The notes under the pieces: generated by a model
Database searches by the model: none
The model's input: the letters and a program-made list of their open reading frames with translations, nothing else
What the model was told of the DNA's origin: nothing
Position numbers and translations under genes: made by a program
In this document: positions 4,384 to 21,475 of the stretch, piece after piece
Layout: each line of letters begins with the position of its first letter
How positions within the stretch are numbered: position 1 is the stretch's first letter
DNA from: Candidatus Woesearchaeota archaeon
GTDB taxonomy: Archaea; Nanobdellota; Nanobdellia; Woesearchaeales; WAPJ01
NCBI GenBank assembly: GCA_047602765.1
Contig: JBLKOL010000003.1
Coordinates: 1-58,451, forward strand
DNA length: 58,451 nucleotides
Direction of reading: 5' to 3'

Positions 4384-4956
4384 TTACAATTGCTTTTTGC
4401 GCCAAACAACGAGTGCTGCGCCCGCTATGATCGTGGTGATGAGAGCCAGCATGACAACAGCGAGCGTATCTTGTTGCTCTACTGAATCCTCCTCTACACG
4501 TGTATGCCCGCATTCGAACCCAAGGAACCGATGACAGTCGGAACATAATCGAGCACCGTCACAGTAATCCTCTTGGAAATGTGTGTACGATACGAGGCGG
4601 CCTTCATAGCGAATAGCAAGCGCCACGGCATCGGAAGGGAGCGGAATAGACAACCTGAAACGAGAAACGTCCGTTTGCGTGCGTTCAAGACGACCGTCTC
4701 GGTCCGTAATGATGCCAGCGCGTGGAGAATACTGGACTCTGCTCGCTATGGATCCTTGTGTGTTGGTGATTTCAAAGTCCCACACCTGTTCTGAACGGGA
4801 GAACGTGCTCGGAGGAGCATTAGCTAGGTACATCTCGAAAACCCTGATGTTCCCATCTGACCGGGCTTCGCCTTCGATCATCAGACTCTGGGAGCTGACG
4901 ATCGGCACCAGCGTTATCGAAACGAGCGCGATAAACACGATTCGTTCTAACCGCAT
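4384..4956 (-). CDS. Secreted protein with C-terminal TM anchor
   Basis: Hydrophobic signal peptide, Cys cluster, C-terminal TM followed by RKK; overlaps the stop of the upstream giant gene. Confidence 0.7.
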   Translation of the reverse strand: MRLERIVFIALVSITLVPIVSSQSLMIEGEARSDGNIRVFEMYLANAPPSTFSRSEQVWDFEITNTQGSIASRVQYSPRAGIITDRDGRLERTQTDVSRFRLSIPLPSDAVALAIRYEGRLVSYTHFQEDYCDGARLCSDCHRFLGFECGHTRVEEDSVEQQDTLAVVMLALITTIIAGAALVVWRKKQL

Positions 4957-7817
4957 GACTGTATCACGCTCCTCAGAGATGATTCTGAACGAATATGCTC
5001 ATAGCCCGCTGGTCCAAAGATGTTGTGAGGTGAGCAACGGTTCATGATGAACTCGTCGGTCTCAACCGCGCAGTCGTCTCGATTCACTCCTCGACACGCA
5101 TCGGCTCCAACAACATCACACGAAAGAAGCGAAAGACCAAGATTGAAGCCGATCTTTGTCATAATCGAATCAGCGACATCACGGACAGTAGAATACCTGC
5201 TGTCTAGATGAAGAAGGGGGTTACGAGAGAACAGATAGGGTGTGAGCGATGCAGTACCGTAACTCTCAGAGATCTCCCGCTTTTCCCACACGTTCAGCAT
5301 ACCGAGATCATTGAACATGATTCCGATGGCAAGATCCGCACGCCCGCCGACGTATTCGTCTGCGCATTGTTGTATCTCATCCATACATCGACTGTTCGAA
5401 TCGACCGTACGGTGCGGTTCGAGTGGATTTAATGGGCAGGATGGCGTATCGCAACGATCCACTGTTCTGAATCTGACCGAACGGCTCCGAACCATGGGAT
5501 CACACTCTCTGAGAGGGGTAGTGGCAAACAATCTCTGCTGTATGACGTAGGATAGTTCATCCAATACAGGCATCTCATCAGCCGAATAGTCTCCCAGCGG
5601 CACGAAGGCGACGTTAAACGTCGGATAGAAAATCGCTCCTTCAACCCGACACTCCCGCGTGGAAGGATCCCATGTCAAGCCCTCGCAACACCCTTGCTGA
5701 TCCGCTGCGACTTCTCCAGGTGCGGCACAGTATGCGCTACACATGAACTCTTCAGCATGTTGAGTGCAGAAACTGTTCCTCCCATACGCGTGAGGGATCC
5801 TACAATCATCTGAACTCATACAGTATGGAGTCTGCGCAGCGTGCGGTGTTGGACGTTCATCCGCCAAGAAACTGAAAAGGTAATCGCTCGGATGCTTCAA
5901 CCCAAACCTATTCGTGTATATTTCGTCCTCGAGAAACCCTGTATCGTGGTGTGCTCTGAAGCGCATGAAGTAGCGTCCCGTTTCCGCAGGGGTGTATTCG
6001 ACGATGTATTCATCTGCACTACCTTCACGATCCTCGACTTGGTGTCCGCTGCGTATCATCGGCACGATGTCAACACCAGCAGGACCGTCAATGATCGCAT
6101 CAACGCGGCTGATCTCGTACCCTGTGGCCTGTTCTTTGAGGTAGAGAACACGATCGATGGTCACCTGCATGAAGAACGGCTCGCGCGCATACATGCGAGG
6201 GGCCTCAGAGAAATCCGAGCTCGCGAGAGGACCCGCGCTGTGGTACGATACTTCGCCTATTCTGAACATCCTCAGGTTACGTATCCCCCCATCAGCAGGT
6301 CGTAGATCGATTTGCGCTGGGTCGATCGGTGGTTCCACCACGCGCACCGTAACCACTTGATCGTCGAAAAAGTAGTTGAGGCCCCTATGGCTCACGAGCA
6401 GTTTGAACTCATACTCCCCCGGACTGTCGAACGAGACGGTACTCGTATAGTGTCTTCCATGTTGAGTATCGTGCTCACGCCTAAGCTCGTGATCACACAC
6501 ATCACCCTCCGCAGTATAATGGCAGGCCAGAACGGTCGGCCGCTCAGGAACGTCTCCTCGGTGATCGTTTGGAAGAATCTCAGTGTTCAGCCTAGTGCTC
6601 AGAACGATTCCTTCACCTACCACTGCCTCGGATCGGTCTGCTCTAAAGAACAGTACTTCGGGAGTATCGTCAAAGTCTTCGATTGTAAGTGTTGCCTCAG
6701 TGTCAAGGATGTGTTCGGTTCCTTCATTATCGGTTATCGTGAACCTCACCGTGAACGTGCCAGGCCGCTCAGAAAACACGCCGTACAATGGGTGCCAAGA
6801 GTCGATCACGACGTCGTACCGGTGTCTTGTTCCCCCAATACCGCTAGGCCTCTCGTTCGTGGTATACTGGTCCAAATAGTGGGTTCCCACCCAGTACTCG
6901 TAGAACCCGGTGGGGCAGACATGATAGAGTACCGCTTCTTGTAAGACGTATCCTGATAAGATATAGATGAGCCCGCCATCATCCCTCGCCCTATCGAAGT
7001 GTCTAAACGGATTATACTGGGGAAGGGGCTTTGTGACCTCATCTACGCTCAGATCGCTGCACGGATGATAATTGGGCCCGAAAATCCTCGCCTTAGGGGT
7101 ATGCTCGAATCGTTCGTCAGGGACCGGAGAATCCAAGACGAGTGTGAGTACGATGGGCTCAGATGTGCTCGCTAAGAAATCCTGTTGTGATACTCGTGCA
7201 GGTCTGAAGAAGGAATCAACATCGAACCTGCTCGATCCAACCCGCTCATCGGAACCTGATTCCGCTCCAGGTCTGTGTGTCGTGTCTTCGGACTCTTGAG
7301 GGTATACGCGAAAGTCGTATCGGTAGTACTCTTCATGACGCATCCCTTCTTCATCTTCAGCTGTCAGGTCCATGTATGCGCTCCATTCATGGTACTCGCT
7401 GTGTTCGTGAGCCCCCGTGAACCGATCATAGTAGGGGAGTGTTGCGGTAATCGTGACTGTAGTGCCCTCCTGAACCCGTGTGATCGGTCGTTCGCGATCG
7501 ATATAATCAGCGTAGTAATTGAACCCTGTTGCCCTATTATAGAACCATACGTTCGTATGACCATAAACGACCGTGCGATCCTCGGTCGTCGAGCGAGCGG
7601 TGAATACCACATCCTGAGCGTACGAAGGGTTCGGTGAGACGCTCACCTCGTAGCGCCTTTCGCTCTCAGGCACAACCCGAAACACATAGTCGGATGCCTC
7701 CGAATCTGAAGGGTGCACGGTGAACTCTAGGTTTCGGTACTCTCTATACTTCTGTCCGGAGTCGTCGCGTTTGTCGATACGCAAATACGATCCAGTCGTT
7801 CGAATAGCGTTCGCCAC
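4947..7817 (-). CDS. C-terminal part of a large surface protein (Ig-like repeats, Cys-rich region, zincin-like C-terminal domain lacking HExxH); probably joined to 7744-9285 across a frameshift
   Basis: 956-aa ORF sharing the SPNPS..D.VF.A.S..TVTITATLP repeat with the upstream ORF; no signal peptide of its own. Confidence 0.75.
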   Translation of the reverse strand: MANAIRTTGSYLRIDKRDDSGQKYREYRNLEFTVHPSDSEASDYVFRVVPESERRYEVSVSPNPSYAQDVVFTARSTTEDRTVVYGHTNVWFYNRATGFNYYADYIDRERPITRVQEGTTVTITATLPYYDRFTGAHEHSEYHEWSAYMDLTAEDEEGMRHEEYYRYDFRVYPQESEDTTHRPGAESGSDERVGSSRFDVDSFFRPARVSQQDFLASTSEPIVLTLVLDSPVPDERFEHTPKARIFGPNYHPCSDLSVDEVTKPLPQYNPFRHFDRARDDGGLIYILSGYVLQEAVLYHVCPTGFYEYWVGTHYLDQYTTNERPSGIGGTRHRYDVVIDSWHPLYGVFSERPGTFTVRFTITDNEGTEHILDTEATLTIEDFDDTPEVLFFRADRSEAVVGEGIVLSTRLNTEILPNDHRGDVPERPTVLACHYTAEGDVCDHELRREHDTQHGRHYTSTVSFDSPGEYEFKLLVSHRGLNYFFDDQVVTVRVVEPPIDPAQIDLRPADGGIRNLRMFRIGEVSYHSAGPLASSDFSEAPRMYAREPFFMQVTIDRVLYLKEQATGYEISRVDAIIDGPAGVDIVPMIRSGHQVEDREGSADEYIVEYTPAETGRYFMRFRAHHDTGFLEDEIYTNRFGLKHPSDYLFSFLADERPTPHAAQTPYCMSSDDCRIPHAYGRNSFCTQHAEEFMCSAYCAAPGEVAADQQGCCEGLTWDPSTRECRVEGAIFYPTFNVAFVPLGDYSADEMPVLDELSYVIQQRLFATTPLRECDPMVRSRSVRFRTVDRCDTPSCPLNPLEPHRTVDSNSRCMDEIQQCADEYVGGRADLAIGIMFNDLGMLNVWEKREISESYGTASLTPYLFSRNPLLHLDSRYSTVRDVADSIMTKIGFNLGLSLLSCDVVGADACRGVNRDDCAVETDEFIMNRCSPHNIFGPAGYEHIRSESSLRSVIQSCG

Positions 7818-10367: not shown

Positions 10368-12317
10368 TTACGACTTCTTACGGATCTGAGCGAGGACCTT
10401 GGTGTGGCCTTTCCAATCGATGACGTGTTCGAGGACCTCAACGATCGACTCGACCGGAACGACCTTGATACGCTTGAGACGTTCACGACCGATCACCAGA
10501 TCATTGAGGTTGCTCTTGGGAACGATGACATGCGAGACACCCGCATCGATCGCAGCCTCGACCTTCGCCGAAAGCCCTCCGATCGGAAGAACCTCGCCGC
10601 GGACGGAGAGCGAACCGGTCATCGCCCACTCCTGCTTGACCGGAACACCCTTGAGCGCGGAGATGATCGCCGTAGCTATGGCGACCGACGCAGAATCACC
10701 CTCGACACCCTCATACGTCTGGAGGAACTGGACGTACACATCCGAGGATTTGAGCTCGTCGCCGAAGAGCTTGCTGATGATCGCAGAGACATTGGTCACC
10801 GCTTCCTTGGCGATCTCACCGAGCCGACCGGTAGCGTTGATACGCATCTCCTTACCGCCTGCGGCGACCTCGGCTTCGATCGGCAGGATGATACCTGAAA
10901 GACCTGATTCTGAGCCCATCACCGCCAAGCCGTTCACCCGACCCACACGCTTACCCGACGTTACGATCACCTCGTACTGCTTCTTGCGTTCGATGTACTT
11001 GTCAGAGAGCTGCTGTTCGAGCGAACGAGCATAGTTCTTCGCACGCTCAACGTGCTCCGGAGTCACGAGCACAGCGCCCTCTTCGAGCGCGAGATCACCC
11101 GCAGCACGGATCAACCCTCCGAGCTCGCGAAGACGCAACGTCAAGTAATTCTTGCGCGAGGCGCGCTTACGCGACTCTTGCACGATAAGATCGACGCTCT
11201 TCTTCGAGAAATGAGGGATCCGACCGTCCTTGCGGACCTCTTGCGCGACGAACCGAGCGATACGCCAACGGTTCTCAGGAGTATCGGGCATCGTATCGTT
11301 CATGAGCACCTCATACCCGTACCCGCGGATACGCGAGCGTAGCGCCGGGTGCATCATCTTGATCGTCTCATAGTTACCCGCAGCGATGAGGATGAAACGG
11401 CACGGAACCGGCTCAGTACGCACCATAGCACCTGCCGAACGCTCAGACTGACCGGTGATCGGATACTTACCCTCCTGGATCGCCGTGAGCAACTCCTGCT
11501 GCGTCGTCTGGTGCAACGTTGAGATCTCATCGATGAAGAGCACGCCTAGGTGCGCCTTGTGGATCATACCCGCCATGACGCGCTCGTGAGCCGGAGTACC
11601 AAGACCGCCGGATTGGAACGGATCGTGCAAGACGTCACCGAGCAGAGCACCGGCATGCGAACCCGTCGCATCATAGAACGGAGCCTGATCGTTATCAGCG
11701 TTATCAACGATGAGCTTTGGCATCTGAACGCGCGGCTGCGTACGGCGCATCACGTTCGAATACAACGCGAACAACCCTACGGCGAGCACGGCAGACACGG
11801 TGAAGGCGAAGAGCATGATCGCACCGATGAGCAGCGAACCACCCTCGATCGTATACGAATAGTAGTCGAAGATCCAGCGGCCCACAAGCGAGAGACCGAG
11901 CATAACGATGATCATGATCCAGATGTTCCCCATCGGATTCTGCGTCATCGTAGAACGCGCCTTGGAGACGAGCTGGCGTCCTTGCCCCTTGGCTACTTGA
12001 GCGATGATCGGTGTGTTCTCATCGTTCTGGTTCGGATACGAGAGGATATCGACAAGCTTCTCCTCAGGAAGCAGTTGCGCGAGAGCGAGTCCGAGCATGC
12101 TCTTGCCCGTACCCGGCTCTCCGATGAGCAGGACGTGACGACGCTGCTGAGCCGCCTTGCGGATGACTTCCACGCCGTGCTCCTGACCGATCACCTGATC
12201 GATCGTCGAATCGGACACGTCGATCTGAGCCGTCGAATCGAAGGCCTTCGAAGAACCTTTCTTGGGACTCTTGCTGCTCGCATCAACTCGACTCACCCGT
12301 TTGATCTGCATGGGCAC
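10368..12317 (-). CDS. lonB: Archaeal membrane-anchored ATP-dependent protease LonB
   Basis: Walker [11 protein letters not shown] insertion in the AAA+ domain, Walker B LFIDEI, GDSAS catalytic Ser and downstream Lys. Confidence 0.96.
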
Positions 12318-12334: not shown

Positions 12335-13420
12335 TTATAAACTTTCTACGAATCCGTTATGATCCGGCATCGGATCAGGGAGCCGTTGCGGATCGAGGAT
12401 CCAGCCCTGATCGCGCAAGGCCGCCACCTGCTTGCGGTGTTCAACACCGATCTTGCCCACATAGAGTTCTGAGAGGTCGTGGCTGCGCAGGTATTCGCGC
12501 ACCGTATAGAATCCCTGGAGGTAGACGTGATCCTTGATGAGCCCGCCACCGCGATACGCCCGGAACGAGATATCGAAGGACTGCGAATCCGTCAATCCGA
12601 ACTCGTCACGCAACCGGCGGCACGAATCAGCCATCGACAACCCGCGCAGGACGTTCTCGACGGCGATCACACGAAGCGCATACTGGCGGAGCGTAAACTC
12701 GGAGATCGTCCCGAGCGAGACCTCCGTATACACGGCGATACCTTCCTCGGTCTCATAGTATCCTGCAAGCCCCACACCGAGCAATGAGAACGGCTGGACA
12801 CGACCGTTCTCAGCACGCAAGACGTGGACACCGACCTCATGAGCGATGAGCCGATGCGCATGGTCCGGAGCGAACCGCTTATGCCTCGGGATCCGGATCA
12901 TACGCTCCGAGTGGACGACCGCCGTGATCTCACGATCATCGAGCGAAACCGACCAGTCATCAAGACCGTACGAGGTGAGCGCCTCGCTCAACTGCGACTC
13001 GACGACCGACGCGTCAACGAGCGAATCAGGACGCCGGGACGGATCAGGACTCTTCAGGATACGATGAGCGCTCTTTACCGTATCAGACTCGAGACCCCCA
13101 TAGAGGGCGAGCGAGATATCCTTCAAACGAGGCGTTCCGATCGCATCAGAGAGCTCGATCTTGAGTTCGAGGGCTGTGAGCATCGGCTCGATCACCGAAC
13201 GCAACAGATCCGAGAGACCTTGCACGAGGATACGAGCCTCCTCGAGCAGTCGACGCGCATCCGAACGATCAGGACGCTGAGCATACTCGAAGGCTGGAAT
13301 GTCACCGTACTCGACGAAGGAGAGCTTCACATCACGCTTATTGAGCGGGGAGACGAGGGTGATCGGATTGACAAGGTACTCGATACGCTCGATAAGGCCG
13401 GTCAGACGCTCGATGGACAT
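12335..13420 (-). CDS. DUF1704 / MATCAP-like (QEGLA-motif) gluzincin carboxypeptidase
   Basis: AHEVGVH (HExxxH), ETEEGIA, GGLIKDHVYLQG and LYVGKI motifs; start reassigned to ATG 13420 (the ORF-track extension overlaps mscS). Confidence 0.85.
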   Translation of the reverse strand: MSIERLTGLIERIEYLVNPITLVSPLNKRDVKLSFVEYGDIPAFEYAQRPDRSDARRLLEEARILVQGLSDLLRSVIEPMLTALELKIELSDAIGTPRLKDISLALYGGLESDTVKSAHRILKSPDPSRRPDSLVDASVVESQLSEALTSYGLDDWSVSLDDREITAVVHSERMIRIPRHKRFAPDHAHRLIAHEVGVHVLRAENGRVQPFSLLGVGLAGYYETEEGIAVYTEVSLGTISEFTLRQYALRVIAVENVLRGLSMADSCRRLRDEFGLTDSQSFDISFRAYRGGGLIKDHVYLQGFYTVREYLRSHDLSELYVGKIGVEHRKQVAALRDQGWILDPQRLPDPMPDHNGFVESL

Positions 13421-13440
13421 GGTCGCGAAGCGTTCGACGA

Positions 13441-13473
13441 GCTTAAAAATGAATCGTCCGATACGCTTATAAC
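13441..13473. promoter_or_regulatory. Back-to-back TATA boxes for the DUF1704 gene (-) and the mscS-rimK operon (+)
   Basis: ATACGC-TTATAAC at 13461-13473 is ~27 nt before 13500; TTTTTAAG on the minus strand at 13442-13449 is ~22-29 nt before 13420. Confidence 0.55.
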
Positions 13474-13499
13474 GGCATCTCAAGTCCGAAGTCTCGCTC

Positions 13500-14942
13500 A
13501 TGGTACTCTCAACCGAACTCTTCGGAGCGTTCACCATCGCAGAAGCCGGCATCGCGCTCCTCATATTCGCAGGGTCCATACTCATCGCGCGAGGCATCGG
13601 ACTCTTCATACGCAAACTCGCACGAGCCTTCGACCGCGAGAGCAGCATCACGCTCGCAAAGACAACGAGCCTCTTCGAAGTAGGCATCATACTCATAGGA
13701 TTCCTCATAGCCCTCTCGGTCATACGCATCGAATTCGCAACGTCCCTGTGGACGAGGCTCGTGAGCATCGTACCCGAACTGCTCGTCTTCATCATCGTAT
13801 TCTACCTCGCCTACGTGTTCTTCTCGCTCATGCTCGACCTGCTCAAGAGCATCGTACTCTCAGCAGGAGCAGGATACCTCAAAGAATTCGACATCTCACG
13901 GAACGCCGTACACGCAGCGTTCTTCATAGCAAAATTCTTCGTCGTCATATTCTTCGCGAGCGTAGCATTGCGCTTCGCACGCGTCGACCTCCCATTGCTC
14001 GACGTAGTACTCGTAGCCTGTGTCTACGCTTCGATCGCAGCGCTCGTAGGCATCGCCTTCTACGCGTTCAAAGACTACGCAGCCAACATGCTCCTCTCAT
14101 CATACATCTCACGCAACGTCATACGCGTAGGACAGAAAGTACGCTACGACGGCAAGAGCGGGGAAGTGAGCGCGATCACCTCACACGGAACGATCATCAC
14201 GCTCGACACAGGATACAACGCGATCATACCCAACAGCCGCATCGTACGCGACCCGGTCGTTGTGAAGAGAGTCGAATCCGACCTGTCAGGACTCGACAAC
14301 CTCGCACGAGAATACACCGTGACGCTCAGCTCTGATTCGGGAATCGCGATCCTCGAAATGGTACTCGGCATCTTCGACGTACACAAGAAACGCGACGACG
14401 TCAAAGACGCGCTCAAAGCCAAAGACGACAGTCCCGACTCGGAGATACGAGCGCTCGCACGAGCTGCAAACACGCTGAGCAGCCAAGACGTGAAAGGAGC
14501 GTTCGTAGAATACAACCAACTCTACCACTTCCGACAAGAGATGAAGAGCTGGCTCACCGAAGAAGCCCTCATCGTCGTACACTACCAAGGGAAAGATGAG
14601 AAACACCCGCGCTACCGACTCATCGTAGGCGTCGAAGGAGACGAATTCATCACGCTCGACACGAGCAAGAACGGAGCCACCCAAGTCATCAACGCCTCAT
14701 CCCTTGAAAAGAGCCTCATCGACCGTACGAGCAGGAAAGGATACCTCATCTTCGCGAAACGAGGAAGCCCCGCCTACTGGCGTATCACCGAAAAACTCTT
14801 CTACGGTGATGTGAGCGCATACCAGAGCATCAGCAAGAGCTTCGAACGCTACCTCAAGAAAGTACTGCGCAAGAGCCGCGTCGTAAACACCTTCCTCTCA
14901 CCACACGTACAGGATAGGATCACACGCAAAGGTGAGCGCTAA
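13500..14942 (+). CDS. MscS-family mechanosensitive channel fused to a catalytically dead C39-like peptidase domain
   Basis: About 5 TM helices, MscS beta-domain (KDYAANMLL..IRVGQKVRYDGKSGEV..IPNSRI), then SGIAILEMVL..LARAANTL..PRYRLIVG..TLD..G matching the C39 pattern with Cys to Ser and His to Arg. Confidence 0.8.
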   Translation: MVLSTELFGAFTIAEAGIALLIFAGSILIARGIGLFIRKLARAFDRESSITLAKTTSLFEVGIILIGFLIALSVIRIEFATSLWTRLVSIVPELLVFIIVFYLAYVFFSLMLDLLKSIVLSAGAGYLKEFDISRNAVHAAFFIAKFFVVIFFASVALRFARVDLPLLDVVLVACVYASIAALVGIAFYAFKDYAANMLLSSYISRNVIRVGQKVRYDGKSGEVSAITSHGTIITLDTGYNAIIPNSRIVRDPVVVKRVESDLSGLDNLAREYTVTLSSDSGIAILEMVLGIFDVHKKRDDVKDALKAKDDSPDSEIRALARAANTLSSQDVKGAFVEYNQLYHFRQEMKSWLTEEALIVVHYQGKDEKHPRYRLIVGVEGDEFITLDTSKNGATQVINASSLEKSLIDRTSRKGYLIFAKRGSPAYWRITEKLFYGDVSAYQSISKSFERYLKKVLRKSRVVNTFLSPHVQDRITRKGER

Positions 14943-15761
14943 GTGCGCATCGCGCTCATCGGAGAATCCGAACACGACATCTTCACACGGCTCTCGAGCA
15001 TGATCGAAGCCGACTATATACCCGTATCCGAACTCGGATTGAGCACCGTAGGAGGCAAGAGCGGCATCGACCGCAACGCCAAAGGCCTACTCGACTACGA
15101 TGCTGTGTTCTTGCAGGTCGACGCACGACTCATGCTCTTCGTAGAACCGCTCCTCGACGAACTCGCCGAGAACGGAATCGCATGCCAGGTCAAACCCACG
15201 GCATTCAACATCCTCGCCAACAAACCCTACACGTTCGTGAGCCTCGCGAGCCGCTCGATCCCCATCCCCAAGATGCGATCCGTCGCGAGCGGAAGCGCCA
15301 TCGAAACCGCCATCGAAGGACTCGAATACCCGTTGCTCATCGAAGCATTCCGCGACCTGGACCGCACGCAGACGATGATCCTCACCGACAAACAGAGCCT
15401 CTACCCATTCCTCAGATCCATACCCTTCCAATACAACCTGATCATGATCCAAGAACTCCTCCAAGACACGCTCACCGAGAGCATCGTCATAGCAGACGAA
15501 GTGTTCAGCATGAGACATACGTGGAACGCAGAACGCCTCGAACACAACGCCAAAGCACAAAGTGTACGCATACGATCAGAAGAACGCCAGATCGCCATAG
15601 ACGCGACCCGCGCCCTGGGCATCGACATCGCACGCGTCAAGATGATCCAAGGACGCGTCATCAGCGTCGACCCGATCATACACGCCGACCGCTTCGAAAA
15701 GGTCCTCGGAATCGACATCGCATCGCACATCGCAGCATACTTCGTGGAGAAGACCGCATGA
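14943..15761 (+). CDS. Degenerate RimK-like ATP-grasp protein (probable pseudo-ligase)
   Basis: RimK layout (NK, PIP, YPL, IQE, ALGIDIA) but ATP-binding Lys replaced by Glu, no Gly-rich loop, GVD to RVK and ExN to SVD. Confidence 0.75.
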   Translation: MRIALIGESEHDIFTRLSSMIEADYIPVSELGLSTVGGKSGIDRNAKGLLDYDAVFLQVDARLMLFVEPLLDELAENGIACQVKPTAFNILANKPYTFVSLASRSIPIPKMRSVASGSAIETAIEGLEYPLLIEAFRDLDRTQTMILTDKQSLYPFLRSIPFQYNLIMIQELLQDTLTESIVIADEVFSMRHTWNAERLEHNAKAQSVRIRSEERQIAIDATRALGIDIARVKMIQGRVISVDPIIHADRFEKVLGIDIASHIAAYFVEKTA

Positions 15762-16633
15762 AACTGTGCATCGTAACTCAGGAGAGCAACGCTCCTCGCA
15801 AGAAAGAGTACATCGCCTCAGGAAAGAAATACTTCACCCAGGTCCTCGGCGTGAGCCTCAACCAACTACGCGTCGAAGCCGGTGAAGAGAAGCCGACCGT
15901 CATGTACAAGAACACCGACCTCTCAACGTTCGACGTCGTATTCTTCAGAGCACACAGCCAGAGCCTCCCCTTCAGCGAGATGGTCCTCGACATCCTCGAA
16001 TCGAACGGCGTGTACGTACCCAACTCGATCGACGGATTACAGATGACGTGCCACAAGTACCACTCGGTGATGCGCGTCGCACGCATCGGCGTAGCCGTAC
16101 CCGACACGAGCCTTGCCATCACACCCGAAGCAGCACTCCAGTACAGCGAGCGATTCGGATTCCCGCTCATCCTCAAACTGCTGCGCGGATTCGGAGGCCG
16201 CGGCGTCATGATGATACGGACCAAGGACGAGCTCAAACCCATCCTCGACACGATCAGCGTATTCGACGAATTCCTCTCGAGCCAAAAATACGTACCCAAC
16301 GCGGGAGAAGACCTGAGAACCTACGTGATCGGAGATGAGGTCATCGGCATCAAACGCAAGGGAGCCGAGAACGAATGGCGAGCCAACGTATCGACCGGAG
16401 GAACCGCAACGTTCATCGAAGTGCCCGAAGCGCTCAAAGAGACGAGCAGGCGCATCGCACAACTCATCGGACTCGAGATCGCCGGCATAGACTTCATAGA
16501 ATCGGAAGGAGACTACGTATTCATAGAAGCCAATTTCACCGCAGGATACCTACCGACCATGTTCGGAACCGAACTCCTCGACAAGATGATGGAATACCTC
16601 TACCACGAAACCGTCGAACGCGCAAAACAATAA
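15758..16633 (+). CDS. RimK family alpha-L-glutamate ligase (ATP-grasp)
   Basis: FPLILK..GFGGRGV, QKYVP..DLR, WRANVSTGG, AGIDF and IEAN motifs intact; ATGA overlap with the previous gene. Confidence 0.9.
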   Translation: MKLCIVTQESNAPRKKEYIASGKKYFTQVLGVSLNQLRVEAGEEKPTVMYKNTDLSTFDVVFFRAHSQSLPFSEMVLDILESNGVYVPNSIDGLQMTCHKYHSVMRVARIGVAVPDTSLAITPEAALQYSERFGFPLILKLLRGFGGRGVMMIRTKDELKPILDTISVFDEFLSSQKYVPNAGEDLRTYVIGDEVIGIKRKGAENEWRANVSTGGTATFIEVPEALKETSRRIAQLIGLEIAGIDFIESEGDYVFIEANFTAGYLPTMFGTELLDKMMEYLYHETVERAKQ

Positions 16634-19679: not shown

Positions 19680-20825
19680 CTACCTTCTTCTGATGTTCTC
19701 GTGGTACAGCACGTGATGCAGCAGTTTCTTGAGGTCTTCATCGTCGCGTTTCTTCGCGAGTTTCGTTCTGCTCATGTACGCTTCGAAGCAGCCGTTCTTG
19801 AGCACGAGCAGTGGGAGTTTGTGCTTGAGCAACATCCAGTTGACGATCATACGCGTCGTTCTGCTGTTCCCGTCATTGAATGGATGGATGCTTTGGAGTC
19901 CGTTGTGGATCCGTCCCAGCTCTTGAACGCATCGTTCTTTCGTCATTATCGATGCGAGGAACGCACAGTAATCGCTCATCTTCCTAGGTACGTCTTCGGG
20001 TGGTGCGGTTGTGAAGTGCGGGTTGCCTTGTATCGTGTTCTGTGCTTTCTTGTACTTCCCCGCGCCTCGATGTAGGCTGAAGAGGACCATCTTGTTGAGG
20101 TCTCGAATATGCTCTGGCGTGATCTCTTCTGTGAGGTTCTCTAAGACGTAATGCATCGCTTCGTTGAGGTTCTTCACCATCTGGATATCGTTTTTCGGTT
20201 TGTCAGGGTAGATATCGTTCAAGATGATGTCTTTCGTCTCTCCTGGTGTAACGGTGCTTCCTTCGAGCTGTGCTGATCCTGAGAGGAAATCGAAGACCTT
20301 CTCGTCGAAGGGGTTGATGTGCTCTTCGGGTAGCCGCAGCAATTCACCCTCTAGGGGGATAAACGGTATCTGTTGCAGAGGGGTTTCATCATTGTTGAGC
20401 GCGAGTATCTCGTTGAAGAGCGTGTGCTCAAGGACGACTCCTCGTCGTGGACGAAGCTGTGTCAGGAGGATGAATTGATGCTCTTCGAAGAACGTGAGTT
20501 TCTTGGTCATATCCTGGTTTCCCTGAAGCTTTGCAGGGCGCATATAGGGCGCGTTACGGAAGAGTTCTCTTACGATCGTGCTCGTGTTCTTTGCGAGAAA
20601 GAGATTGTAATCAAGACCGTTCTTCAACGAGTATCTGATGATGGTGAAGATGTGCTCAGATCGCTCAGTCCTTCGTGGGATGAACTGTGTTCCTCTCTTT
20701 TCGAGCAAGCCTTCTTTGACGAGGGAGTCGAGCTGCGCATAGACGCGTCCGGTGAACGGCAGATCTTTAGCGGCGCATGGCGCGTGTTCGATTACCGCTG
20801 CAAAGACATCATACATCGTCGGCAT
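19680..20825 (-). CDS. Class II Fic-domain AMPylase with N-terminal wHTH
   Basis: HPFNDGNSRTTR Fic motif, inhibitory SAQLEG motif; start reassigned to ATG 20825. Confidence 0.9.
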   Translation of the reverse strand: MPTMYDVFAAVIEHAPCAAKDLPFTGRVYAQLDSLVKEGLLEKRGTQFIPRRTERSEHIFTIIRYSLKNGLDYNLFLAKNTSTIVRELFRNAPYMRPAKLQGNQDMTKKLTFFEEHQFILLTQLRPRRGVVLEHTLFNEILALNNDETPLQQIPFIPLEGELLRLPEEHINPFDEKVFDFLSGSAQLEGSTVTPGETKDIILNDIYPDKPKNDIQMVKNLNEAMHYVLENLTEEITPEHIRDLNKMVLFSLHRGAGKYKKAQNTIQGNPHFTTAPPEDVPRKMSDYCAFLASIMTKERCVQELGRIHNGLQSIHPFNDGNSRTTRMIVNWMLLKHKLPLLVLKNGCFEAYMSRTKLAKKRDDEDLKKLLHHVLYHENIRRR

Positions 20826-21475
20826 GGGTCGTCGCACCACACAGCAGTATATAAAATGAACGATTGTTGTAGTATAATTACATTCGCGCTTAATATAAAG
20901 AGGTGGTCGTCTTGTATGATTACGCAATACTGTAACTTGGGTACAAAATAACTTAATTACCATATATGTTGGGTGATGATCACGCGAACGCTACCCAGCA
21001 CGTTTCGCCCTCGTCTTCCGATACATGCCAGCACTCACGCCGACTGGCCCTGCAGCTCGCGCTACACGAACGATCCATCTGTGCCGCGTTCCAACGCGTA
21101 CGTCCCGATGGCACGAGGAAATCCAGCGCACAGACTAACGCAAAAGCCATCCAAAGCGTACGTTGCACCAATGCGGCTGGTACGAACCACCAGAGATCAA
21201 ATCCTCTTTTCGAATCATGAGCGCTTGTTCAGACTGGAACGACACACGACTTCACCGCAAGCATGTGAACGAAGGACTCGTACCAACAGATACGAATATC
21301 GATGAAGTGGATTCTGTGTTGATACTCGGTTGTAGGAGAACCCTTACGATTCGCGACCACGGCTGTAGAACACTGCAGATCTTCGCCGTGAAAGGAGTAT
21401 GCACAACACGAAGATCACTACACCAGCACGCCGTTCATGTTCCACTACACACCACACGCATTCATCTACACCGCA

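Follow-up and report, generated by a model that had tools for sequence, protein, structure and literature searches.

An MscS-like membrane protein fused to a C39-like pseudo-peptidase, encoded beside RimK-type ligases in a woesearchaeal archaeon

We characterized a gene on a stretch of DNA of 58,451 nucleotides (hereafter, the window) from a Candidatus Woesearchaeota archaeon (positions 1–58,451 of the forward strand of contig JBLKOL010000003.1, assembly GCA_047602765.1). This gene (the target; 13500–14942, forward strand; 480 amino acids followed by a TAA stop) encodes an MscS-like membrane protein fused to a C39-like pseudo-peptidase. The product is a member of the MscS family with five transmembrane (TM) helices, a pore-helix/hinge region and a beta-domain, in which a papain-fold domain of the C39 type stands in place of the canonical alpha/beta cytoplasmic domain and leads into a conserved basic tail. 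The C39-like domain has lost its catalytic residues, yet it is a pseudo-peptidase maintained under purifying selection and not a decaying remnant. The protein varies two known themes: MscS-family proteins, here given a cytoplasmic domain new to them, and C39-like pseudo-peptidases, here borne by a membrane protein other than an ABC transporter.

MscS channels and C39 peptidases have each been studied well, and we found no paper that joins the two; no description of an MscS–peptidase fusion was found in the literature, including a review of the papain superfamily. An earlier, sequence-only reading of the window had not recognized the fusion as a described architecture. This holds for the literature searched, but the fusion is not unique to this genome: the fusion family comprises about 50 clusters at 50% identity, mostly from DPANN archaea, that lie in databases under automatic names (for example, ‘C39 family peptidase’ for one member at NCBI and ‘small-conductance mechanosensitive channel’ for another at JGI).

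Architecture of the fusion protein

The open reading frame is intact and has an equal length in close relatives. By itself, the target protein gave only a sub-threshold beta-domain match and no peptidase match against Pfam and NCBIfam, and no match in the PDB by phmmer; its identification therefore depends on relatives and models. A word-indexed search returned six close relatives (69–97% identity) and three distant ones (30–36%), the latter with precomputed Pfam domains for both MS_channel and Peptidase_C39_2/C39. In an exhaustive profile search, 52 clusters scored below 1e-30, and about 48 of these were full length (455–545 amino acids). The family profile and the Pfam counts below are based on 50 aligned members.

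The membrane part (residues 1–205; 13500–14114, forward strand) was delimited using hydropathy, model helices, Foldseek and the family profile against Escherichia coli MscS. Hydropathy scanning showed five hydrophobic helices (approximately residues 12–35, 55–76, 90–117, 135–158 and 165–190), the last of which, together with the FKDYAAN hinge, is the counterpart of MscS TM3a/TM3b. Lys and Arg are abundant in the loop that follows TM1, which fits an N-out, C-in topology. The MscS beta-domain follows at residues 206–255 (14115–14264, forward strand; Pfam PF00924 and PDB profile alignment). The Pfam MS_channel_2nd match of the target (residues 206–253; E = 1.4e-3) lies just below threshold (19.2 bits against a cut-off of 20.2), and PF00924 is matched by 40 of the 50 family members (best, 5.3e-11). 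The 50-sequence profile aligns with E. coli MscS (2vv5) at E = 5e-15 over TM1–2 and over TM3 with the beta-domain (query 173–255), and in Foldseek the N-terminal half falls on MscK, MscS and YnaI with a probability of 1.0.

What follows the beta-domain is a C39/papain-fold domain (residues 256–420; 14265–14759, forward strand), as judged from alignment, Foldseek, selection and the absence of the MscS third domain. The distant relatives carry Q...CGPA...GHY...D in this region, and one relative, P0007, matches Peptidase_C39_2 (PF13529; 5.8e-14) and Peptidase_C39 (PF03412; 2e-8). Across the family, Peptidase_C39_2 is matched by 33 of the 50 members, Peptidase_C39 by 31 and Phytochelatin by 16; the Pfam C39 models run on the target’s own domain gave no match. 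Among solved structures, the best profile match of the peptidase part is the phytochelatin-synthase-like protein Alr0975 of Nostoc (E = 1.3e-4; query 270–425), which scores more weakly than the C39_2 and C39 models and, unlike the target, is soluble and catalytic. This prokaryotic protein acts on gamma-Glu peptides.

In the full-length AlphaFold model (predicted local distance difference test (pLDDT), 86), five long helices precede the beta-domain, which is followed by an alpha/beta domain (residues 262–420) and terminal helices; all models were of monomers. Foldseek matched the C-terminal domain of this model to C39 structures of the papain type. A model of residues 256–480 alone (pLDDT, 80.7; predicted template modelling score (pTM), 0.79) was matched by Foldseek, each time with a probability of 1.0, to ComA (3k8u; target TM-score (TMt), 0.72), LahT150 (6mpz; 0.71), the papain-like toxin CdiA-CT (8ssm; 0.71), PCAT1 PEP (7n87; 0.67) and PeiR (8z4n; E = 4e-6), with root mean square deviations of 3–4 Å over about 155 columns. 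The assignment to the C39 fold is far beyond chance, and the modelling, which might have returned an ordinary MscS cage or an unrelated fold, returned neither. The MscS third domain (PF21082) was found in 0 of the 50 family members at E ≤ 0.01. Because two ordinary MscS paralogues in the same genome do contain it (1.4e-14 and 3.4e-12), it would have been found in the target if present. Its absence and the C39 fold of the region rule out a normal alpha/beta cage and bear out the proposal of the sequence-only reading that a C39/papain-like domain had taken the place of the cage. Given its position after the beta-domain, and by analogy with MscS structures, the C39-like domain is probably cytoplasmic.

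The ratio of non-synonymous to synonymous substitution rates (dN/dS) in the C39-like domain is 0.17 and 0.24 (target against relatives at 84% and 72% identity), equal to that of the TM part. The domain is thus still under purifying selection after the loss of its catalytic residues and, as the frame is intact in all relatives, a decaying, pseudogene-like domain can be ruled out. The C-terminal extension (residues 421–480; 14760–14939, forward strand), defined by dN/dS, composition and a motif survey, is the most constrained part of the protein (dN/dS of 0.05 and 0.12). It is basic (14 Lys and Arg against 5 Asp and Glu), and three of its residues (R428, Y435 and Y441) are at least 90% conserved; Foldseek of the domain model found no structural match for the tail outside the C39 core. 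About 45 of 56 family members have a motif near the C terminus, (E/D)K(V/I)xR(V/L/I)W(K/R)P, that often forms the extreme C terminus; RimK-linked intact members extend 10–50 Lys/Glu-rich residues beyond W(K/R)P. The target subclade lacks this motif and ends in ...RITRKGER (equivalent position, 14895–14939). The channel’s own C terminus is an unlikely RimK acceptor and was rejected as such for the target clade, whose terminal residues vary (R, Q, K and P) and whose members no longer have W(K/R)P.

Catalytic residues and the history of their loss

In alignments with distant relatives, SSDSGIA of the target (residues 277–283) falls on (Y/F/N)CGPA and PRYRL (residues 370–374) on GHYVL. The nucleophile column, which contains Cys in all 37 catalytically intact relatives, is occupied by S280 (TCG; 14337–14339, forward strand), and the catalytic His column, His in the same 37 of 37, by R371 (CGC; 14610–14612, forward strand). 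Upstream, T275 (14322–14324, forward strand) stands in a column of conserved Gln five residues before the Cys; a Gln before the nucleophile is the oxyanion-hole position in C39 enzymes. The third triad position, D387 (14658–14660, forward strand), is kept in at least 90% of the whole family. The Ser and Arg that had been noticed at the two catalytic positions are thereby confirmed, and the view that the domain is a non-catalytic pseudo-peptidase, with catalytic residues lost and purifying selection kept, is well supported.

A maximum-likelihood tree of 50 members united the target with P0002, P0004, P0005, P0006, P0012 and P0015 in one clade (support, 100), which is nested among members with the complete Q-C-H-D set. 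All seven members of the clade have Ser and Arg, and the member from G003, a genome of the same family, has Ser and Lys. A single ancestral event in the target lineage converted Gln/Cys/His to Thr(Ala)/Ser/Arg(Lys), and the Ser at the nucleophile position has since been strictly retained across more than 1.7 substitutions per site. Most family members are catalytically intact, and Cys and His were lost at least four times: in the target clade, in P0019, in P0052 and in an eight-member clade. The residues that replaced them in independent losses differ (E/N, T/N, R/S, S/E and M/R). Intact and dead members alike conserve G281, A283, E347, W351, Y372, D387, G414-Y415, R428, Y435 and Y441, and the target subclade also has D279 and R373 near the former active site.

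A gene module with RimK-type ligases

The TAA of the target directly abuts the GTG start, at 14943, of a gene for a RimK-like pseudo-ligase (14943–15761, forward strand; 272 amino acids; Pfam RimK, E = 6.4e-9). Alignment with the intact paralogue shows that three features are missing from this protein, namely the Gly-rich loop and the R-x-N..GG and E-x-N (metal) motifs, and the same is true in all clades aligned. At most RimK-linked loci, this pseudo-ligase is the gene next to the fusion. Its TGA is in turn overlapped (ATGA) by the ATG at 15758 (not 15764) of an intact RimK-family alpha-L-glutamate ligase (15758–16633, forward strand; 291 amino acids; Pfam RimK, E = 2.2e-27), which scores 153.9 bits against the NCBIfam model TIGR00768 rimK_fam (cut-off, 143.4). 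These are the only two RimK matches in the genome, and the abutting and overlapping junctions suggest translational coupling of all three genes.

Divergent from the target lies a gene for a MATCAP/DUF1704-family metallopeptidase (12335–13420, reverse strand; 361 amino acids; HEVGVH motif; Pfam MATCAP, E = 1.9e-53). Its start at 13420 agrees with the 361-amino-acid genes of loci L001, L003 and L004, and the gene is found in the same position in all close relatives. It fills the hydrolase slot held by FGase in related operons; no FGase was found in the target’s own genome. The MATCAP protein is a candidate for the trimming hydrolase of the module in the target lineage, with a predicted activity on Glu tails. 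The gene is an archaeal homologue of that for the eukaryotic tubulin tyrosine carboxypeptidase MATCAP. The divergent intergenic region (13421–13499; 79 bp), read from the sequence, contains two A/T-rich TATA-like elements (TTAAAAAT at 13443–13450 and TTATAA at 13467–13472), each about 25–30 nt from one of the two start codons. These elements may function as promoters, and their spacing suggests that the MATCAP gene and the channel operon are both transcribed with little or no leader.

Related loci were gathered with a ten-sequence alignment. The core module consists of the fusion, a dead RimK, a live RimK and a swappable hydrolase, and the operon is conserved across about 30–97% identity. The order fusion–dead RimK–live RimK occurs in the close clade (L001, L003 and L004), P0015 (L017 and L018) and G003, in intact-C39 loci of Iainarchaeota, archaeon GW2011_AR10 and other DPANN archaea (L002, L005–L013 and L045), and in Nanohaloarchaeota-type loci (L014, L015 and L043) and P0019 (L041); in P0022 and P0052, a single live RimK directly follows the fusion. 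As the dead ligase precedes the live one in intact-C39 and dead-C39 lineages alike, the dead/live pair is ancestral to the module. The hydrolase is an FGase at L002, L006, L007, L013, L017, L040 and L045, MATCAP in the target clade and L014, and M29 at several loci. A RimB-like retropepsin (PF05618) adjoins the module at L041 (1461–1847) and L044 (3348–3713) and links it to the bacterial RimK/RimB system of glutamate addition and trimming. Locus L046 encodes a soluble, intact C39 protein of 236 amino acids (4732–5442) homologous to the domain of the fusion (E = 3.9e-44); its gene stands at the head of a separate dead-RimK/live-RimK pair, next to a complete fusion gene, which indicates that ligase pair and C39 domain belong together as a unit with or without the channel.

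The RimK and MATCAP context, from which the sequence-only reading had drawn the idea of poly-Glu, is therefore conserved in relatives. All four pseudo-peptidase lineages (the target clade, P0019 at L041, P0052 at L042 and the Nanohaloarchaeal clade at L014 and L043) are RimK-adjacent. The notion that the fusion is always linked to RimK was rejected: in six genomes of the largest intact clade, which belong to the same order, an intact fusion stands with no RimK within about 5 kb and the RimK genes lie elsewhere in the genome. Each of the six stand-alone fusion genes examined encodes an intact catalytic site. Linkage to the ligases is thus widespread without being universal.

Outside the module, an archaeal LonB gene lies upstream (10368–12317, on the strand opposite to the target), and genes for ArgRS and a PIG-L-family protein lie downstream of the live RimK. 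LonB, ArgRS and the PIG-L/BshB1-like gene were rejected as parts of the system, as their synteny is limited to the close clade. A few kilobases downstream, a gene for a Fic/DOC-domain protein of 427 amino acids is found at 19680–20963 (reverse strand; Pfam, E = 8.3e-16). The genome of the target (G000; 0.96 Mb, 69% complete) contains five MscS-type genes, of which three are canonical; those elsewhere in the genome are at C38:13392–13589, C14:40015–40212, C17:16033–16242 and C18:33204–33389. One MscS-type gene of this genome encodes a 198-amino-acid protein that stops directly behind the beta-domain and so amounts to a miniature, cageless MscS. The DNA recurs in metagenomes from lake water, soda lakes, salt lakes and alkali sediment.

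Possible roles of the dead domain

Several known systems resemble parts of the target. The C39 domains of ABC exporters (ComA, PCAT1 and LahT) and the C39-like domain (CLD) of HlyB have the same papain-type fold on the cytoplasmic side of a membrane transport protein. The HlyB CLD is inactive yet essential, and binds its substrate without peptidase activity (PMC11026475). The target family likewise includes members in which the nucleophile is lost and the domain kept, a likeness that we take as an analogy only. The target differs in that the partner is an MscS-type channel rather than an ABC transporter, the C39-like domain comes after the membrane part, no double-glycine cargo gene is found at the locus, identity to solved C39 domains is just 12–16%, and the nucleophile and His have become Ser and Arg. 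With regard to the MscS family (E. coli MscS, YnaI and MscK), TM1–TM3 and the beta-domain are homologous to those of the target, and variants with a changed or missing cytoplasmic part are known (structures of the miniature TcMscS, 9bgq and related entries, are among the matches). The target, in contrast, has five TM helices and different residues at the gate positions, and a peptidase fold with a basic helical tail instead of PF21082 and the C-terminal barrel. The MscS-family comparison set also includes fusions to ligand domains, such as bCNG.

Bacterial systems for glutamate tailing provide a further comparison. RloB of Pseudomonas carries an inactive transglutaminase domain, of the papain superfamily, on seven TM helices, works with a RimK-like ATP-grasp enzyme and Glu-cleaving retropepsins, and has a role in hypo-osmotic tolerance (PMC11957051); RimB, according to one report, trims RimK-made Glu tails in Pseudomonas (PMC11957791, as summarized in PMC11957051). 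In RloABC and RimK/RimB (RimABK), a RimK-type ligase is encoded with a peptidase that trims Glu tails, just as the module described here combines a ligase and a hydrolase. Rlo moreover has a membrane protein with an inactive papain-superfamily domain and a hypo-osmotic sensitivity phenotype, but the likeness is architectural only: the dead domain of RloB is periplasmic, whereas that of the target follows the cytoplasmic beta-domain, and neither the target nor its 50 relatives match Pfam 7TM_transglut or Transglut_i_TM. The archaeal module also differs in having a dead and a live ligase as a pair and a MATCAP-type hydrolase.

The best explanation, and one that we regard as reasonably probable, is that the dead C39 fold serves as a binding module that links RimK glutamate chemistry to an MscS-type channel. 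RimK enzymes are described as making alpha-Glu oligomers or tails (PMC11957051). In the proposed scheme, the live RimK, with the dead paralogue as its non-catalytic partner, would make alpha-linked glutamate oligomers or tails, and the hydrolase beside the module would trim them. The C39 domain of intact relatives would cut or transfer the same RimK product, whereas the dead domain of the target would keep only binding in its groove and so could hold the ligase, or else the ligase’s product or substrate, at the channel’s cytoplasmic mouth. Occupancy by an acidic peptide might then modulate the channel, or polymerization and release of glutamate might be placed at a single site; such control would suit osmotic or glutamate-pool regulation in an archaeon of soda or salt lakes. 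Poly-Glu binding and gating by a ligand or a modification, both suggested by the sequence-only reading, are putative. The least secure step is the putative binding of carboxylates by Arg371, for which the conservation of a basic residue is the sole argument; a salt bridge between R371 and D387 would be an equally simple explanation.

A bolder version of this binding-module proposal, which we consider quite improbable, is a product-gated osmotic valve: seven dead domains, together with the basic tails, would build the vestibule of an MscS heptamer and act as a receptor for oligo-glutamate made by RimK and trimmed by MATCAP. A heptameric cage built from peptidase domains is a hypothesis, as is gating by a ligand. 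If the valve is real, polymerization and depolymerization of the main anionic osmolyte would be coupled directly to the opening of the release channel, a mode of osmoregulation and of MscS gating that has not been described before.

Several observations weigh against the binding-module proposal. R371 may simply form a salt bridge with D387, and D279 and R373 could close the pocket internally. To our knowledge, archaea have no bacterial ribosomal protein S6 (bS6), which has a C-terminal Glu and is the acceptor for RimK in bacteria. The absence of an adjacent RimK in the largest intact clade (six genomes examined) implies that the fusion has a function independent of the ligase pair, and the three canonical MscS genes in the genome imply that the target need not be a safety valve. 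In metatranscriptomes, just four short contigs from related strains touch the locus, one of them within the target gene (14505–14642), which is too thin for a claim of transcription.

We also weighed four other explanations. In the first, which we consider unlikely, the C39 fold is a structural remnant that only builds a vestibule or oligomer interface, with R/K371 paired to D387 and no role in ligand binding or gating. In its favour, the domain sits where the MscS alpha/beta domain otherwise does and was retained through at least four independent losses with different replacement residues, and D387, Y372, W351, E347 and G414-Y415 persist in active and dead members, as expected of fold or interface residues. 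The losses, however, are confined to RimK-linked lineages, with none seen in the stand-alone clade, which argues that the partner genes matter to what the dead domain does, and a pure scaffold would not need to keep the same Ser over such a distance (more than 1.7 substitutions per site).

Less probable still is that the MscS-like part is not a channel but a membrane anchor or tension sensor that localizes a RimK complex and passes no ions or solutes. The target falls below the Pfam threshold for the beta-domain, G184 and Y188 take the positions of the E. coli gate residues L105 and L109 on our reading of the profile alignment, and the valve function could be covered by the three canonical MscS genes. 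On the other hand, homology to MscS spans TM1–TM3 and the beta-domain, and conservation within the N-terminal half is highest in the pore helix, the hinge and the beta-domain, with Y188, F190-K191-D192-Y193, N196, G211 and P244-N245 invariant in alignment A1 and a beta-domain dN/dS of about 0.19.

We find it very unlikely that the domain is still an enzyme in which Ser280, Arg/Lys371 and Asp387 make up the site of an unconventional serine hydrolase or acyl-transferase, with the RimK product as its substrate. The exchange of Cys for Ser is a conservative swap of nucleophiles, Asp, G281 and A283 are retained, and a basic residue (Arg or Lys) is conserved; other peptidase families, such as Lon, LexA and signal peptidase, work with a catalytic Ser-Lys dyad. 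Against this, the conserved Gln has become Thr or Ala, Arg, a poor general base, is present in 7 of 7 sampled members, the Pfam C39 models fail to recognize the domain, and we know of no papain-clan enzyme with a Ser/Arg pair. Papain-fold ligases and transferases do exist, to go by one report, and CtaG is among the structural matches (PMC12865890).

Peptide export in the manner of PCAT and HlyB, in which the C39(-like) domain would dock, or when active cleave, cargo leaving through the MscS-like pore and the dead version would correspond to the HlyB CLD, is highly improbable: the best structural matches are indeed transporter-borne C39 domains (PCAT1, ComA and LahT150) and the active/inactive split parallels that between PCAT and HlyB, but the module, with its 0-nt or overlapping junctions, contains no precursor-peptide gene or candidate double-Gly leader, its conserved partners are ligases and carboxypeptidase-type hydrolases rather than cargo, and we know of no MscS pore that translocates polypeptides.

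The family amounts to a natural experiment, in which intact and dead versions of one domain occur in a single operon frame and at least four losses took place, each beside RimK-type genes. With this repeated loss beside RimK genes, one can directly test whether the domain has a non-catalytic role, such as that of a receptor or tether for glutamate-type peptides. The module gives the bacterial RimK/RimB and RloABC systems, which are poorly understood, a counterpart in archaea and, as DPANN genomes are minimal, the conserved investment of three to four genes suggests that it has an important physiological function.

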